From positions 1 to 51,479 of IMG/VR virus record IMGVR_UViG_3300045988_007046: 51,479 bases of DNA; one strand, written 5' to 3'. The translations under genes and the position numbers were made by a program. Under the pieces are notes generated by a model, which was given only the letters and a program-made list of their open reading frames with translations, was not told the DNA's origin and made no database searches. Of the stretch, positions 11,730-16,003 are shown piece by piece (position 1 is the stretch's first letter; each line of letters begins with the position of its first letter). Source of the stretch: a virus. Taxonomy: Duplodnaviria; Heunggongvirae; Uroviricota; Caudoviricetes.

Positions 11730-12101
11730 ATGAAAAACAGAACAAACAAAGGCCAGTTTAAAAAAGGCCAGTCTGGAAACCCATCTGGAAGACCAAAAGG
11801 CTCTCGTAACAAAAGCTCACTTGTAAAAGCTCAACTGACCATTGATAATTCTGCTGAGTTTGCTGCAAAGTTGTTTGAGGCGGTTGTTACAAGGGATGCT
11901 GCTAAGCTTGCAGAGTTCGGTTTGACGACTGACGATGTAAACCTGAAGTCGATGATGGAGGCTGGTAAAACCATCATGACTCACTCAGCAGGTGAGATGA
12001 AAGCGATTGCAGCAGACACTAAGAAGACCCCTGATAATGGTGGTCAGTCTCAGACAGATAACAAACCAACGTTCTCTGCTGTAGCGACTCTCAAAAAATA
12101 A
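11730..12101 (+). CDS. hypothetical small basic protein (possible DNA-binding)
   Basis: 123 aa; N-terminus KGQFKKGQSGNPSGRPKGSRNK is strongly basic and Gly/Pro-rich. Confidence 0.5.
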   Translation: MKNRTNKGQFKKGQSGNPSGRPKGSRNKSSLVKAQLTIDNSAEFAAKLFEAVVTRDAAKLAEFGLTTDDVNLKSMMEAGKTIMTHSAGEMKAIAADTKKTPDNGGQSQTDNKPTFSAVATLKK

Positions 12102-12105
12102 TTTT

Positions 12106-12150
12106 AAAAGGTGTTGACAGACTCTACAAAGTTGCTCTAAAGTCTGTCAC
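12106..12150 (+). promoter_or_regulatory. sigma70-like promoter candidate overlapping an 8-bp inverted repeat
   Basis: AAAAGGTGTTGACA with TTGACA at 12114-12119, TAAAGT about 18 nt downstream; GACAGACT...AGTCTGTC inverted repeat spans the core. Confidence 0.45.
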
Positions 12151-12182: not shown

Positions 12183-13598
12183 ATGAGCGAATTATTTAAA
12201 CATGCGCACCTTCATGCAGGTCGAACTGAAAATGGTGCTGTAAACCATACTTCATCAATGTCTGCTCTTGTAGACTTTTACAAAGCTGCTGGTTCAAGCC
12301 GTAGCAACGTAGAAATCTTACCAGACCTGTTCTACAAAGCTTTGCGTGAGGATGTTGATGTTGCAGTTCGTATTTTGCTTCATATGCGAGATGTACGAGA
12401 AGGTATGGGTGAGCGTAAAGCCTTCAGAACTGTTTTACTTCAAGCGATTGAAGACAAAGTTTTAGAGCCTACGCAGGTTCTTCGCATTATGGATAAGATT
12501 GCAGAACTTGGTCGTTTTGATGACTTCAAAATCTTCGTAGGTACTCGTTTCGAGACAGATGCCTTCAAACATCTAGAAGCAGCATTACTAGACCCTGCAA
12601 CAGCAGGTTTGGCGGCTAAGTGGTTACCACGAGTCAAACCACGTCATAAGCAGTTTGTAAAACGTTTCTGCAAGTTTGCCAACTTGAGTGAGAAAGAGTA
12701 CCGCACACTGTTGTCTGCACTATCTGATACAGTTGAGCAAAAAATCTCTGCTAATGAGTTTGGTAAGATTGACTACAGTAAGATTCCTTCACTTGCTGCT
12801 GCACGTTACCAAAAACTGTTTAACCGCAAAGATGGAGAACGCTACAAAGCTTACATCGAGTCCTTATCAAAGGGTGAGACTAAGATTAATGCTGGTGCTG
12901 TTTACCCATACGATGTAATTAAATCTGTTAAGCATGGTAATGCAGATGTTGCTAATGAGCAGTGGAAAGCACTACCAAACTGGATGGCAGAGGGTGAAAA
13001 CATCTTGTGTATGTCTGATGTTTCAAGCTCAATGTCTTGGGTGAATTTTGGTTCAATTACTGCTCTTGATATTGGTGTTTCACTTGCATTGTATGTAGCA
13101 GAACGTAATACAGGTTGCTTTAAGAATGAGTTGATGGTTTATTCAACAAACCCTCACTTCATCGAACTGAGTGGTGATTTACGAAACCGTCATCGTCAGG
13201 TGATGCGACACGTTGAATATGGCTCAACTAACTTACAAGCAGCTTTTGACCGTATTCTTGAAACAGGTAAAAGAAACAACTTGACTCAGAAAGATATGCC
13301 AAGTAAGCTTATCATCTTCTCCGATATGGAGTTCAATCAGGTTGATGGAGCTAACGGTCGTACAAACTTTGAAGCAATTCGTAGTAAGTACAAAAAAGCT
13401 GGATACGAAATGCCTCAACTGGTATTCTGGTACTTAGCAAACCGTAATGGTACTTGCGAAGTGTCTGTTAAGGATAACGGTGTAGCAATGGTATCTGGTT
13501 TTTCTCCAGCTACTTTAAAAGCTCTGCTTGGTGGTGAGAAGTTTGACCCAATCAGCGTAATGCTCAAAGCAGTAATGATTGACCGTTATATCTGGTAA
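12183..13598 (+). CDS. vWA-domain protein, possibly Ro60/TROVE-like RNA-binding protein
   Basis: 471 aa; MIDAS-like D-x-S-x-S (MSDVSSSMSW) followed by vWA-like strands (ELMVYS, GSTNLQAAF, KLIIFSDMEF, GVAMVSGFS) whose order resembles the Ro60 C-terminal vWA domain; helical N-terminal region. Confidence 0.4.
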   Translation: MSELFKHAHLHAGRTENGAVNHTSSMSALVDFYKAAGSSRSNVEILPDLFYKALREDVDVAVRILLHMRDVREGMGERKAFRTVLLQAIEDKVLEPTQVLRIMDKIAELGRFDDFKIFVGTRFETDAFKHLEAALLDPATAGLAAKWLPRVKPRHKQFVKRFCKFANLSEKEYRTLLSALSDTVEQKISANEFGKIDYSKIPSLAAARYQKLFNRKDGERYKAYIESLSKGETKINAGAVYPYDVIKSVKHGNADVANEQWKALPNWMAEGENILCMSDVSSSMSWVNFGSITALDIGVSLALYVAERNTGCFKNELMVYSTNPHFIELSGDLRNRHRQVMRHVEYGSTNLQAAFDRILETGKRNNLTQKDMPSKLIIFSDMEFNQVDGANGRTNFEAIRSKYKKAGYEMPQLVFWYLANRNGTCEVSVKDNGVAMVSGFSPATLKALLGGEKFDPISVMLKAVMIDRYIW

Positions 13599-13609
13599 AA
13601 AGTTTTAAA

Positions 13610-13646
13610 AAGGGTATTGACAATGTGTTTGATGCCCTTTAATATG
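13610..13646 (+). promoter_or_regulatory. sigma70-like promoter candidate
   Basis: AAAAAGGGTATTGACA with TTGACA at 13617-13622, 17-nt spacer, TAATAT at 13640-13645. Confidence 0.5.
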
Positions 13647-13699
13647 TTCTACATAGAAACGAAACGAGAGCTTTTCTAAGATACTGAAAAATATTTTAA

Positions 13700-13738
13700 A
13701 AAAGTTCTTGACAACCACTAAAAAATAATGTTAAAGTG
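13700..13738 (+). promoter_or_regulatory. sigma70-like promoter candidate upstream of the tRNA array
   Basis: AAAAAGTTCTTGACA with TTGACA at 13708-13713, TAAAGT at 13732-13737. Confidence 0.45.
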
Positions 13739-13763
13739 GTTACATAGAGTTTGAAAAGTTTAT

Positions 13764-13840
13764 CTCTGTTTAGCTCAGCTTGGTAGAGCGTTCCGTTTGG
13801 GGCGGTAAGGCCGGAGGTTCAAGTCCTCCAACAGAGACCA
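13764..13840 (+). tRNA. tRNA-Pro (anticodon TGG)
   Basis: Hand-folded: acceptor CTCTGTT/AACAGAG with C1-G72, T-arm GGAGG-TTCAAGT-CCTCC, anticodon loop TTTGGGG, CCA encoded. Confidence 0.65.
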
Positions 13841-13847
13841 AATTAAT

Positions 13848-13925
13848 GTTCCAGTAGACAAAATGGTAAAGTCACCACTCTTTCAAAGTGGATATCTGAG
13901 GGTTCAAATCCCTTCTGGAACGCCA
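13848..13925 (+). tRNA. tRNA-Glu (anticodon TTC)
   Basis: Acceptor GTTCCAG/CTGGAAC, anticodon arm CCACT-CTTTCAA-AGTGG, T-loop TTCAAAT, CCA encoded. Confidence 0.75.
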
Positions 13926-13930
13926 GTTTT

Positions 13931-14004
13931 GACAGAAGACCAATTACAGCAAACTTAATCTACTCATCTGACACGAAATCGGACAAAGAAGATATTTGGT
14001 CTGG
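13931..14004 (+). ncRNA. structured spacer element E1 (CAGAAGACC...GGTCTGG family)
   Basis: 5' GACAGAAGACCAA pairs with 3' TTGGTCTGG; conserved internal ACAGCAA. Confidence 0.35.
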
Positions 14005-14015
14005 TCATTGAGAAT

Positions 14016-14092
14016 TGCGGGTATAGAGAAAGGGCGTCTCACATGTCTCATTAGCATGGTATCGGCAGGTTCGACTCCTGCACCCGCCTCCA
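14016..14092 (+). tRNA. tRNA with CAT anticodon (Met or Ile2), with a 1-72 mismatch
   Basis: Acceptor TGCGGGT/ACCCGCC (U1 opposite C72), anticodon arm CATGT-CTCATTA-GCATG, T-arm GCAGG-TTCGACT-CCTGC, CCA encoded. Confidence 0.55.
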
Positions 14093-14097
14093 ATTTT

Positions 14098-14158
14098 GCA
14101 GAAGACCGTATTCAGCAACAAAATACTTTTTGCGGATAAAAGAAAAAACACGGTCTGG
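14098..14158 (+). ncRNA. structured spacer element E2 (CAGAAGACC...GGTCTGG family)
   Basis: 5' GCAGAAGACCGT pairs with 3' ACGGTCTGG; internal TTCAGCAA. Confidence 0.35.
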
Positions 14159-14169
14159 CAATGTATTAA

Positions 14170-14246
14170 GGTTAGGAAGCACATAAGGTATGTGCGGTCG
14201 CCTGTTAAGCGAATGGCACAGGGTTCGAATCCCTGACTAACCGCCA
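14170..14246 (+). tRNA. tRNA-Asn (anticodon GTT)
   Basis: Acceptor GGTTAGG/ACTAACC, D-arm GCAC/GTGC, anticodon loop CTGTTAA, T-arm CAGGG-TTCGAAT-CCCTG, CCA encoded. Confidence 0.7.
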
Positions 14247-14255
14247 AATTTAAAT

Positions 14256-14343
14256 GTGTCGTTATCCCGTAGATGGTAGCGGTGGGGACTGTAAATCCCT
14301 TGTCATTGAGACTCGGTAGGTTCGACTCCTACACGACACACCA
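14256..14343 (+). tRNA. tRNA-Tyr (anticodon GTA), long variable arm
   Basis: Acceptor GTGTCGT/ACGACAC, anticodon arm GGGGA-CTGTAAA-TCCCT, long variable arm, T-arm GTAGG-TTCGACT-CCTAC, CCA encoded. Confidence 0.75.
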
Positions 14344-14348
14344 ATAAA

Positions 14349-14426
14349 GGTTATGTAGTTTAATTTGGTTAAAATACTCCCCTGTCACGGGAGATGATGA
14401 GGGTTCAAATCCCTTCGTAACCGCCA
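14349..14426 (+). tRNA. tRNA-Asp (anticodon GTC)
   Basis: Acceptor GGTTATG/CGTAACC, anticodon arm CTCCC-CTGTCAC-GGGAG, T-loop TTCAAAT, CCA encoded. Confidence 0.75.
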
Positions 14427-14432
14427 ATTTTG

Positions 14433-14478
14433 AGAGGGCTATTTAGCCCCTCCCTTAAAGAGTTCTTACGAGTATTCT
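14433..14478 (+). promoter_or_regulatory. paired hairpins in a tRNA spacer (possible processing or termination signal)
   Basis: GGGCT-ATTT-AGCCC hairpin followed by CCCTTAAAGA...TCTTTAAGGG inverted repeat enclosing GTTCTTACGAG. Confidence 0.4.
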
Positions 14479-14487
14479 TTAAGGGAG

Positions 14488-14561
14488 CAGAAGACCAAAT
14501 ACAGCAAGAATGTATGAAATTTCAAGCCAATTTAATTTTGAAAATTTAAAACTTGGTCTGG
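14488..14561 (+). ncRNA. structured spacer element E3 (CAGAAGACC...GGTCTGG family)
   Basis: 5' CAGAAGACCAAA pairs with 3' ACTTGGTCTGG; internal ACAGCAA. Confidence 0.35.
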
Positions 14562-14574
14562 CTCAACAAATTTA

Positions 14575-14706
14575 CAGAAGACCGTTTACAGCAAAACTTA
14601 AACAATCTATTTCTCCGGTAAAGAAAAGGCGAAGGTTCGATTCCTTCACTCGGCAGATGTCGAGTTGGTGTAATGGTAGCACTTAAGATGATAAACAACG
14701 GTCTGG
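14575..14706 (+). ncRNA. structured element E4: CAGAAGACC...GGTCTGG closing helix enclosing a tRNA-like module (Y-RNA/YrlA-like candidate)
   Basis: Closing helix AGACCGTT (14579-14586) with AACGGTCT; inside: perfect T-arm GAAGG-TTCGATT-CCTTC (14631-14647), 7-bp hairpin ACTCGGC-AGAT-GTCGAGT (14648-14665), D-arm-like GTGT-AATGGTA-GCAC (14668-14682). Confidence 0.4.
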
Positions 14707-14707
14707 T

Positions 14708-14851
14708 AATTATCTTTGTAGATAAGTTATTAAGCTTACCTGTGAGTATGCGACCACAAAGGGTGAAAGGGTAAATTCTAGATTTAAACCCAAAAAGGCA
14801 CATCGCTACAGACCTTAAGCAAGTCTGGGTAGCTTATCTACAAAGATAATT
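14708..14851 (+). repeat. 19-bp perfect inverted repeat enclosing a ~106-nt segment
   Basis: AATTATCTTTGTAGATAAG (14708-14726) is the exact reverse complement of CTTATCTACAAAGATAATT (14833-14851); interior holds a CAGAC...GTCTG hairpin. Confidence 0.6.
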
Positions 14852-14855
14852 TAAT

Positions 14856-14931
14856 GGAAGTGTAGCAGAATGGTGATGCGGCAGACTTTTAATCTGACAG
14901 GCGATGGGTTCGAATCCCTCCACTTCTACCA
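14856..14931 (+). tRNA. tRNA-Lys (anticodon TTT)
   Basis: Acceptor GGAAGTG/CACTTCT with G1-U72, anticodon loop CTTTTAA, T-region ATGGG-TTCGAAT-CCCTC (only 3 clean T-stem pairs), CCA encoded. Confidence 0.6.
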
Positions 14932-14936
14932 AAAAT

Positions 14937-15013
14937 GGTTCAGTCGCAGATAAGGTAATGCAAGGGTTTCATAAGCCCTATGAATGTGGGTTCGATTCCC
15001 ACCTGAACCTCCA
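14937..15013 (+). tRNA. tRNA with CAT anticodon (Met or Ile2)
   Basis: Acceptor GGTTCAG/CTGAACC, anticodon arm AGGGT-TTCATAA-GCCCT, T-arm GTGGG-TTCGATT-CCCAC, CCA encoded. Confidence 0.7.
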
Positions 15014-15014
15014 A

Positions 15015-15090
15015 GCTGGTATAGTTAAGAAGGTTATAACACTCCCCTGATAAGGGAACATCGGTGGTTCGATTCCACCTACCAGTACCA
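15015..15090 (+). tRNA. tRNA-Ile (anticodon GAT)
   Basis: Acceptor GCTGGTA/TACCAGT, anticodon loop CTGATAA, T-arm GGTGG-TTCGATT-CCACC, CCA encoded; starts 1 nt after the preceding tRNA. Confidence 0.7.
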
Positions 15091-15097
15091 ATTTCAA

Positions 15098-15136
15098 TAA
15101 AGTTGTTGACATTGAGATGTGACTACTTTATAGTAA
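15098..15136 (+). promoter_or_regulatory. sigma70-like promoter candidate inside the tRNA array
   Basis: AATAAAGTTGTTGACA with TTGACA at 15106-15111, exact 17-nt spacer, TATAGT at 15129-15134. Confidence 0.55.
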
Positions 15137-15294
15137 CCTTAGTTTTCGTTGCGTAGCGTCTATTTTGCAAATTTAAAATAAATGCAAACGACAATGTTTT
15201 TCTGGCAGTAGCTTGATAGGCTAAACACCAGTGAGGTCTTCCAATCCCTCATCAAAGAATTTGGCGTACTCGCCCACGGTATGATTAATAAGGT

Positions 15295-15336
15295 GGGCAT
15301 CTTTAAGGGCTTTCTAAGAGAGTCTTTAAAGATAAT
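15295..15336 (+). promoter_or_regulatory. spacer hairpin (ATCTTTAA...TTAAAGAT inverted repeat)
   Basis: 8-bp inverted repeat enclosing GGGCTTTCTAAGAGAGTC; related to other spacer hairpins carrying TTCTTA/CTAAGA motifs. Confidence 0.35.
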
Positions 15337-15338
15337 TA

Positions 15339-15420
15339 CGGGGCGTATCTCAGCGGTCTTCTAAACCGCCGTTAACCGAGTAAGTGGAGTATGCGGGTTC
15401 GAGTCCTGCCGCCTCGACCA
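15339..15420 (+). ncRNA. atypical tRNA-like element (possible aberrant tRNA-Arg TCT or pseudo-tRNA)
   Basis: Good acceptor CGGGGCG/CGCCTCG, T-arm GCGGG-TTCGAGT-CCTGC and CCA, but the only anticodon-like hairpin GCGGT-CTTCTAA-ACCGC lies 7 nt after the acceptor (no room for a D-arm) and is followed by a 23-nt extra region. Confidence 0.3.
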
Positions 15421-15563
15421 ATTTAGTTAGCAGATTACTTAGACGACCTAAGCGTGTCTTCCTGTAAGGAGGTGGTCTGTATCTCATGTTTTCCAGAACA
15501 TGTAAATAATCTGAGAAGGGGCTTTACAGTGTTGCGAAAATACGGTAAGCTTCGAATTACAGT

Positions 15564-15646
15564 ATGGGACGATGTTAAGACTCTAAGGCATGAGCAACGG
15601 CCTCCAAAACCGTTTCAAAGGGGTTCAACTCCTCCGTCCCATGCCA
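15564..15646 (+). tRNA. tRNA-Trp-like (anticodon CCA) with extended D region
   Basis: Exact acceptor ATGGGAC/GTCCCAT, anticodon loop CTCCAAA (identical to canonical Trp loop), T-loop TTCAACT, CCA encoded; about 7 extra nt between acceptor and anticodon stem. Confidence 0.4.
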
Positions 15647-15659
15647 AAGTCTTATTAGG

Positions 15660-15750
15660 GGTAGGTAGCGGCTAATGGTAGCCAAACTGTCTTGAAAACA
15701 GTTGCCACTGTAGAGATACGGTGAGGGTTCGACTCCTTTACTTACCGCCT
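15660..15750 (+). tRNA. tRNA-Ser (anticodon TGA), long variable arm
   Basis: Acceptor GGTAGGT/ACTTACC, anticodon arm ACTGT-CTTGAAA-ACAGT, long variable arm, T-arm GAGGG-TTCGACT-CCTTT; 3' CCA only partly encoded. Confidence 0.65.
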
Positions 15751-15900
15751 AATAAGATTTACACCGTCCATGCTTGCTCGCATTTTCGGTTTATCCCTCG
15801 TGTATTGTCGTACACTGATAAAGCACCTAGTAGGTGTCACGGAGAAGAGATAATATCAAGCTCTCCAAAGGTTCTAGTCACCGGATTAAACAAGACTATG

Positions 15901-15925
15901 CAAAGACCTATTTAGGTCTTTTTAG
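15901..15925 (+). terminator. terminator-like hairpin inside the tRNA array
   Basis: AAAGACC-TATTT-AGGTCTTT followed by TTTTA. Confidence 0.4.
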
Positions 15926-16003
15926 AGGGCTTCTAAGGTTATTAGTCGCTTGTTGTGGAACCTTGTTGCTCAGGTTCTTAGAAGTTCTCTAAAAAGATTT
16001 AAT

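Follow-up and report, generated by a model that had tools for sequence, protein, structure and literature searches.

The window examined here is a stretch of 51,479 nucleotides (nt) from a phage of the Felix O1 type (IMG/VR record IMGVR_UViG_3300045988_007046), in which an open reading frame (ORF) for a protein of 471 amino acids (12183-13598, + strand) lies directly upstream of an array of tRNA genes. Four related elements on the same strand, which we call E1 to E4, are scattered among these tRNA genes. In our view the locus is likely to be a ribonucleoprotein module of the phage on the plan of Ro60 and Y RNA, with a Ro60-fold protein and with the elements as its putative RNA partners. The array holds 25 tRNA genes, all on the + strand, from 13764 (the start of tRNA-Pro) to 18916. 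The region from 12183 to 14900 is 99.7% identical to Escherichia phage vB_EcoM_ASO1A and matches 299 phage records, nearly all of them from Felixounavirus and its relatives. In one relative, Bas63 (JohannRWettstein), the DNA of the region is 95% identical and the orthologue of the window ORF is bas63_0130 (gp130).

In Pfam (E<=1) the protein matched DUF7788 (E 3e-43) and DUF2828 (E 1.5e-29) and nothing else; NCBIfam gave no match, and PHROGs assigned it to family 850, labelled 'RNA-binding protein'. The motif SDVSSSM at residues 278-284 belongs to a metal ion-dependent adhesion site (MIDAS), whose complete set of residues (D279, S281, S283, T349 and D381) was invariant across 45 homologues, as were many basic and aromatic residues of the N-terminal part. 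An AlphaFold model built from these homologues (pLDDT 88.5, pTM 0.87) was compared with PDB structures by Foldseek, and the top ten matches were all Ro60, with alignments of 520-560 columns and query-normalised TM scores of 0.51-0.65. Their sources include the Thermus phage phiLo, Xenopus, human complexes and Rsr of D. radiodurans, and generic von Willebrand factor A (vWA) domains ranked below them (TM ~0.2). The predicted structure shows the architecture of Ro60, in which a vWA/MIDAS domain closes a ring of helical repeats. The preliminary description of this DNA, made from the sequence alone, had reported a MIDAS-like DVSSS motif in the 471-residue product and had likened its helical N-terminal region and C-terminal vWA domain to Ro60, and both proposals held. 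Because Ro60 supplied the ten best structural matches and the Ro60 domain TROVE was not matched, we regard the protein as a Ro60 fold in a separate sequence family.

This family is found in 710 phage records, which cover Ounavirinae, jumbo phages of Vibrio and Aeromonas, Campylobacter phages, Herelleviridae (phages of Listeria, Staphylococcus, Enterococcus and Bacillus) and Mycobacterium phages. The Mycobacterium phage homologues, 95 of the 710 records, are annotated as 'Ro-like', and elsewhere the GenBank names are 'vWFA protein' or hypothetical protein. A fold search in BFVD also returned close structural relatives from giant viruses of eukaryotes, namely Pithovirus LCPAC304 (TM 0.87), Marseillevirus, Cafeteria roenbergensis virus, Mimiviridae ChoanoV1 and Bodo saltans virus. 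Such viruses are a possible route between the phage and protist versions of the family.

The RNA side of the proposed module is defined by a short signature. The pattern AGAAGACCNNNTNCAGCAA matched four times on the + strand, where 0.14 matches were expected, and none of 100 shuffles reached four. Every copy is followed downstream by the complementary NYGGTCTG, and the four resulting elements have the same orientation. In the register of the covariance model they read G-ACCRN / NUA / CAGCAA ... NYGGUC / UG. What E1 to E4 have in common is a terminal stem of 6-7 bp with a 5' G, the single-stranded UUACAGCAA and a C-UG 3' end, and their interiors vary; the unpaired (U)UA-CAGCAA sits directly 3' of the 5' strand of the stem. 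E1 (core 13938-14003, outer helix 13930-14007) lies between tRNA-Glu and tRNA-Met and reads GACCAA/UUA/CAGCAA...UUGGUC/UG, with UGAC/GUCA as outer helix. E2 (core 14104-14157, extended 14096-14161), between tRNA-Met and tRNA-Asn, reads GACCGU/AUU/CAGCAA...ACGGUC/UG with the outer helix UUGC/GCAA, and E3 (core 14493-14560, extended 14485-14564), which shares the interval between tRNA-Asp and tRNA-Lys with E4, reads GACCAA/AUA/CAGCAA...UUGGUC/UG with the outer helix GAGC/GCUC. Spacers of 11-12 nt separate E1 and E2 from the flanking tRNA genes.

In Ounavirinae, the elements have this extra outer helix of 4 bp around an AGAA/UG internal loop. The outer helix of E2 changes from UUGC/GCAA to UUAC/GUAA in relatives, which is a compensatory change. 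Among Felixounavirus, Mooglevirus and Suspvirus, the ends of the elements are kept and the interiors of E1 and E2 are replaced. The support for the structure of E1 to E4 is comparative, not thermodynamic. In the records of Bas63 (L081), ESh20 (L167) and SUSP2 (L168) the elements are either unannotated or lie under short hypothetical ORFs, mostly on the opposite strand, such as the small minus-strand ORFs bas63_0137 and bas63_0138 over E3 and E4 in Bas63; these ORFs are probably annotation artefacts.

Evidence that the elements and the protein belong together comes from their genetic linkage. We collected 80 viral loci with relatives of the protein and, after removal of the five Felixounavirus loci, kept 75 distant loci whose proteins are ~40-45% identical to the query. 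The first loose motif scans were dominated by noise and were rejected in favour of a stricter rule, for which the opposite strand and ten dinucleotide shuffles served as controls. It required a 5' G, a stem of 6 bp, a linker of 3-4 nt, CAGCA[AG], the partner strand and xG as tail. In the distant loci this rule found 89 elements on the strand of the gene, compared to 9 on the opposite strand and 3-6 in the shuffles. Within 1 kb of the gene were 69 of the 89 (0.34-0.61 per kb, compared to 0.03 per kb elsewhere), and 49 of the 75 loci had at least one element at this distance, including loci without tRNA genes. A covariance model, R1, was then built from 33 short elements of distant phages without any Felixounavirus sequence. 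On both strands of the whole 51-kb window its top three matches were E1 (27.4 bits, E 2.7e-5), E2 (27.0 bits, E 3.5e-5) and E3 (20.4 bits, E 0.0026). All 68 matches of R1 in the viral loci (E<=0.1) were on the gene strand, and so were all 43 in an independent set of 80 bacterial-assembly loci, where they mostly lie just upstream of the gene. The elements adjoin the homologue in Mooglevirus, Suspvirus, Bas63, a Klebsiella phage, the Listeria phage LMTA-34 and the mycobacteriophage Nicholas; in LMTA-34, two found by R1 (39.4 and 36.9 bits) and a third seen by eye all immediately precede the gene. Unrelated phages and bacterial assemblies thus encode this RNA class on the same strand as the same protein family, usually within 1 kb of its gene.

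These results also bear on one alternative, namely that there is nothing special in the locus and that a generic vWA protein happens to stand beside decayed tRNA genes or spacer repeats. Pfam gives DUF and vWA families only, the GenBank names quoted above are equally generic, and E4 has tRNA-like arms. However, the match to the Ro60 fold is full-length, E1 to E3 have no tRNA features, models from unrelated phages find them with E-values down to 2.7e-5, and the strand bias is perfect in two independent sets of loci. This alternative, which we find hardly credible, is already contradicted by the fold match, the ranking of R1 and the strand bias.

E4 (core 14580-14705, extended 14572-14709, + strand) is a YrlA-type chimera in which the terminal module, with UUAC/GUAA as outer helix, is placed around a permuted tRNA-like domain. 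This domain consists of a T arm (14631-14647, GAAGG-UUCGAUU-CCUUC), a 7-bp acceptor-like hairpin (14648-14665, ACUCGGC-AGAU-GUCGAGU) followed by UG, and a D arm (14668-14682, GUGU-AAUGGUA-GCAC); the tRNA model of Rfam matched part of E4 (14598-14648) with 22 bits. The preliminary description had seen a terminal helix with an internal tRNA-like module at 14575-14706, which was essentially right and needed only refined ends. E4-type RNAs adjoin the protein gene in at least six other phages. When E4 and six analogues were folded together by RNAalifold, the consensus showed the terminal stem as well as the T arm and 7-bp hairpin, and compensatory changes were found in 18 of the 19 pairs. Like YrlA, E4 and its analogues contain a tRNA mimic in circular permutation.

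Other members vary this plan. In the related locus L073 (7418-7518) the tRNA-like domain has the normal order of D arm, anticodon-type arm with a 7-nt loop and T arm, and the CAGCAA terminal stem replaces the acceptor stem; it seems, then, that inserts of the tRNA-like kind originated on more than one occasion. In L055 (7529-7636) and L032 (8155-8289) the loop of the acceptor-like hairpin has CCA directly after the 3' strand (e.g. AUUUUCC-GCCAAUU-GGAAAAU), which looks as if the 3' CCA end of a tRNA were joined to its 5' end. In Nicholas, three RNAs lie downstream of the gene for the 'Ro-like RNA binding protein': a short one, one that scores with YrlA and another short one. The middle RNA reached 37.9 bits with the Rfam YrlA model, below the gathering score of 69, and its ends read GGACCCC-CA-CAGCAA...GGGGUCC-AG. 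The last short element scored 36.1 bits with R1 and is followed by a terminator-like GC-rich hairpin and U tract, read by eye. Since the YrlA-scoring RNA of Nicholas bears CAGCAA ends, we conclude that phage 'YrlA' RNAs rely on the CAGCAA module and not on the bacterial Ro-binding motif.

At the gathering threshold, Rfam found nothing beyond tRNA and tmRNA in the window and 11 related loci. E1 and E2 were matched by one Rfam family alone, Dicty_Class_I_RNA (RF01414; 17.5 bits for E1 and 24.0 bits for E2, gathering score 41.5). It also matched an element of L054 (24.4 bits) and left those of L071, L013 and L077 unmatched, and we built our own models because its matches were patchy and below threshold. 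The Class I RNAs have a terminal stem of 6 bp in which the 5' G is invariant, an 11-nt motif of the CCUUACAGCAA type after the 5' strand and a 3' CUG(U) (PMC7919456); they are ~60 nt long with a variable interior and have been called unique to Dictyostelia (PMC7919456, Kjellin et al. 2021). The phage elements have the same signature, with a 6-bp stem and 5' G, a CCUUACAGCAA-type motif and a 3' C-UG, and like the Class I RNAs they enclose a variable, A-rich interior in ~50-65 nt. Many Class I members even have the same 3-nt linker (e.g. GAACUC-UUA-CAGCAA), and a few (asu_can_20, ppa_can_99) also have a T arm and hairpin.

A reciprocal test gave the same picture. A covariance model made from 30 dictyostelid sequences only, R2, was run over 918 kb of phage loci (E<=1), and all of its 36 matches were on the gene strand and fell on elements already defined; the best scores were 32.5 bits (E 5e-5), 32.0 bits and, for the Listeria phage, 32.2 bits. 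Of its 16 matches in the bacterial-assembly loci, 15 were on the gene strand, and its top two in the window were E2 at 18.3 bits (E 0.017), followed by E1 at 18.0 bits (E 0.02). In contrast to the phage elements, the Class I RNAs are eukaryotic and come from dozens of dispersed genes with their own DUSE promoter, and their reported direct binder is Rnp1A/CIBP, a protein with an RNA recognition motif. A Class I pull-down recovered Rnp1A/CIBP, GuaB, NdkC and the uncharacterised DDB_G0281243. We propose tentatively, with doubt slightly outweighing belief, that the phage stem/UUACAGCAA/C-UG RNAs beside DUF2828/DUF7788 genes and the Class I RNAs are one family whose conserved partner is a Ro60-fold DUF2828 protein. 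If so, there would be a second 'Ro/Y RNA' ribonucleoprotein system parallel to the known one, with a range that takes in phages, bacteria, giant viruses and eukaryotes; the Class I RNAs would not be unique to Dictyostelia, and their predicted partner would be a dictyostelid DUF2828 protein, possibly DDB_G0281243. Should the match reflect common descent or a common partner, it would lead to a concrete hypothesis on a class of eukaryotic RNAs that is abundant, was thought lineage-specific and whose function has long been open. DUF2828 proteins are mentioned in plant papers. Separately, an Arabidopsis outgroup candidate, ath_can_1 (40 bits, GUUUUC-AUUA-CAGCAA...GAAAAC-UG), fits the signature (PMC7919456, Supplemental Table S4). 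The outgroup candidates of that table are too few to count as evidence, and the authors dismissed them likewise (PMC7919456).

How the phage module might work can be outlined as follows. E1 to E4 would be transcribed together with the tRNA array from two promoter candidates on the + strand (13617-13645 and 13708-13737; the next candidate downstream is at 15106), and the tRNA processing enzymes would release them as small stable RNAs. The protein may recognise the constant stem/CAGCAA/UG junction in the way that Ro60 recognises the conserved helix of Y RNA, and the variable loops, or in E4 the tRNA-like domain, may serve as a gate to the protein's cavity or link the protein to targets or tRNA-handling enzymes. 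Ro60 itself holds Y RNA at the outside of its ring and takes up the ends of misfolded RNAs in the cavity. The module could then act in RNA surveillance and counter-defence during infection; the near-identical gp130 of Bas63 counters the Ppl defence experimentally.

The positions of the elements could also be taken to mean that they act in cis, either as operator or leader sites through which the protein regulates its own mRNA or as signals for processing or stability of the tRNA operon. In the bacterial-assembly loci and the Listeria phage the gene is directly preceded on its own strand by the elements, which are often arranged in tandem; in many phages they begin 30-400 nt past the stop codon, and those of the window are part of a polycistronic tRNA array. 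We nevertheless think a cis-acting role unlikely. In Ounavirinae the elements follow the gene at a distance of 340-1100 nt, with separate promoter candidates ahead of them and tRNAs in between, and there are up to four diverged copies. The closest analogues are free RNAs, namely the YrlA-like RNAs of mycobacteriophages, bacterial YrlA/YrlB and the Class I RNAs, which are abundant stand-alone transcripts (PMC4201824, PMC7919456). Besides, cis-acting sites of this kind would still imply binding by the protein.

Several results weigh against reading the locus as a Ro60/Y RNA-like module. On the protein side, the preliminary description had named TROVE, vWA and DUF2828 as the families to look for in Pfam. 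DUF2828 was matched and vWA_Ro60 weakly so in 9 of the 45 family members (best E 1.7e-4), but TROVE was matched in none of the 45. When the family profile was compared with the sequences of PDB chains, Ro60 came up at E 1.1 at best, which is not significant, with DVSgSM aligned to DVSaSM of Xenopus Ro60, i.e. to the MIDAS strand. On the RNA side, the models for Y_RNA and YrlA in Rfam gave no match in 13590-16000 even at E<=10. The earlier proposal of a YrlA-type Y RNA is borne out in the layout of E4 and the linkage to the protein, but not in an Rfam match or the GNCGAA motif, in place of which the elements have CAGCAA. E4 was scored weakly by the models of the short RNAs (R1 10.8 bits over a partial span, R2 11.4 bits over the full span). 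The expected covariation was seen in the E4-type RNAs and the outer helix of E2, but folding energies alone were not significant, since the single-sequence folds of E1 to E4 went only modestly beyond shuffles (z -1.0 to -2.8). The pairing of 100% in the seed alignment was discarded as evidence: it is circular because the elements had been selected for pairing, and the real test is the enrichment by strand and position. Finally, we infer from the sequence that E1 to E4 accumulate as RNAs and are bound by the protein. In the work on Bas63, deletion of gp130 cripples the plaques of Bas63 on a Ppl host, complementation was done, and gp130 alone rescues T7 on Ppl (PMC11482910). The protein by itself, from a plasmid or in T7 without the E RNAs, is thus sufficient against Ppl (PMC11482910), and its anti-Ppl activity is therefore independent of the E RNAs unless host RNAs substitute for them. 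For the same reason the RNAs are more likely to be regulators or adaptors for other substrates than obligatory cofactors in this activity.

The sufficiency of gp130 would agree with another explanation, in which the RNAs are independent of the protein, either as tRNA-mimic decoys for host anticodon nucleases or as small RNAs that pair through CAGCAA, and stand beside the gene because both belong to a shared accessory module. The mimicry of tRNA by the E4-type members and the position of the elements within tRNA arrays in 37 of the 80 loci point in the same direction. However, the linkage to the protein gene holds in phages without nearby tRNA genes and down to ~30% protein identity, and it is the terminal module that is invariant, not the tRNA-like part, which most members do not have. 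Independence of the RNAs from the protein is in our view quite improbable, and a ribonucleoprotein module remains our preferred reading.

Other features of the locus were noted. A sigma-70-like promoter candidate precedes the gene of the protein (12114-12143, + strand; TTGACA-18-TAAAGT, 10 of 12 consensus positions) and is a consensus match only. Immediately upstream, in the same direction, is an ORF of 123 amino acids (11730-12101, DUF5681, PHROG 4114), and Bas63, ESh20 and SUSP2 have an annotated ORF of equal length at this position. Between E4 and tRNA-Lys, the 148 nt at 14706-14853 (+ strand) form a long hairpin with a closing stem of ~24 bp and no Rfam match (minimum free energy -48.3 kcal/mol, z = -6.3, none of 200 shuffles as stable), which is overlain in Bas63 by the small minus-strand ORF bas63_0138. 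Downstream of the strongest promoter-like site (15106-15134, + strand, 11 of 12), a stretch of ~200 nt gave weak matches of the tmRNA type (15148-15337 and 15032-15216). A tRNA-like gene at 15339-15417 (+ strand; Rfam 31.7 bits, no ARAGORN call) is annotated as tRNA-Arg in its Bas63 equivalent, and a weak tRNA-Sec-like match lies at 15566-15640 (+ strand).

In LMTA-34 (L165), a ROOL-like RNA (2428-2979; 88.5 bits, E 5e-17, gathering score 99.1) lies ~1 kb upstream of the Ro60-like gene, and a gene for RtcB, a 'tRNA splicing ligase', 1.3 kb downstream of it. No RNA-repair neighbours were conserved around the gene in two distant phages, and RtcB was found near the homologue in the Listeria phage only. 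In another Listeria phage, CKA15, the homologue has an HHpred match to Rsr, and within 2 kb upstream of it are three non-coding transcripts of very high abundance (PMC12282133). The ROOL-like RNA is probably one of the 'highly transcribed non-coding regions' reported for CKA15. The CKA15 protein, CKA15_055, was detected in purified virions with 20 peptides and 57% coverage (PMC12282133, Table 1), and the Ro60-like protein may accordingly be delivered together with the genome.

Part of this module has been described before. Bas63 gp130 was reported to be structurally similar to Ro60 and to counter the Ppl defence (PhageMaP preprint, PMC11482910), so the protein part is already published for a near-identical phage. 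For bacteria as well as phages, YrlA-like RNAs close to Ro60 genes have been reported (Chen et al. 2014, PMC4201824). The view that a Ro60/Y RNA module would be unusual in a phage was overstated, given the 'Ro-like' homologues of mycobacteriophages with an adjoining YrlA-like RNA and the Ro60-like gp130. The authors of the preprint speculated that some annotated tRNA genes of Bas63 are possibly Y RNAs (PMC11482910); the E elements, instead, lie between the tRNA genes. We found no paper that defines short CAGCAA RNAs, and the RNA family, its general linkage to DUF2828/DUF7788 and the identity of its signature with the signature of Class I RNAs seem to be new. If our reading is correct, the RNA partners at which the Bas63 study could only guess are identified and gp130 becomes a testable ribonucleoprotein. 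The large DUF2828/DUF7788 family would then be a Ro60-type family with its own cognate RNA class and a simple, searchable signature.

Compared to the known systems, the module differs in sequence and agrees in plan. The window protein belongs to the DUF2828/DUF7788 family and has no TROVE match, whereas the Ro60 of Thermus phage phiLo (PDB 9l5y, 9kop; PMC12135203) was deposited as a TROVE-domain protein. YrlA (RF02553) has the Ro-binding motif GNCGAAN0-1G (PMC4201824), whereas the E elements have UUACAGCAA with a 3' C-UG; GGCGAAG occurs once only, at the T arm of E4 (14626-14632), and reads GGAGAAG in the relative L002, so that it is not conserved. On the other hand, Ro60/Rsr has the same architecture of a helical ring and a vWA/MIDAS domain, and the genes of YrlA and YrlB adjoin the protein gene on the same strand, as E1 to E4 do 340-1100 nt downstream. 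The RtcB gene near the Listeria phage homologue recalls the rsr-yrlBA-rtcBA operon. In YrlA and YrlB, too, the ends of the RNA pair and a conserved motif of the protein-binding type stands on the 5' side, and one long member with a permuted tRNA-like domain is accompanied by shorter members without it, like E4 and E1 to E3. The order reported for YrlA, with the T arm followed by a closed acceptor-like stem and the D arm (PMC4201824), is also the order found in E4.

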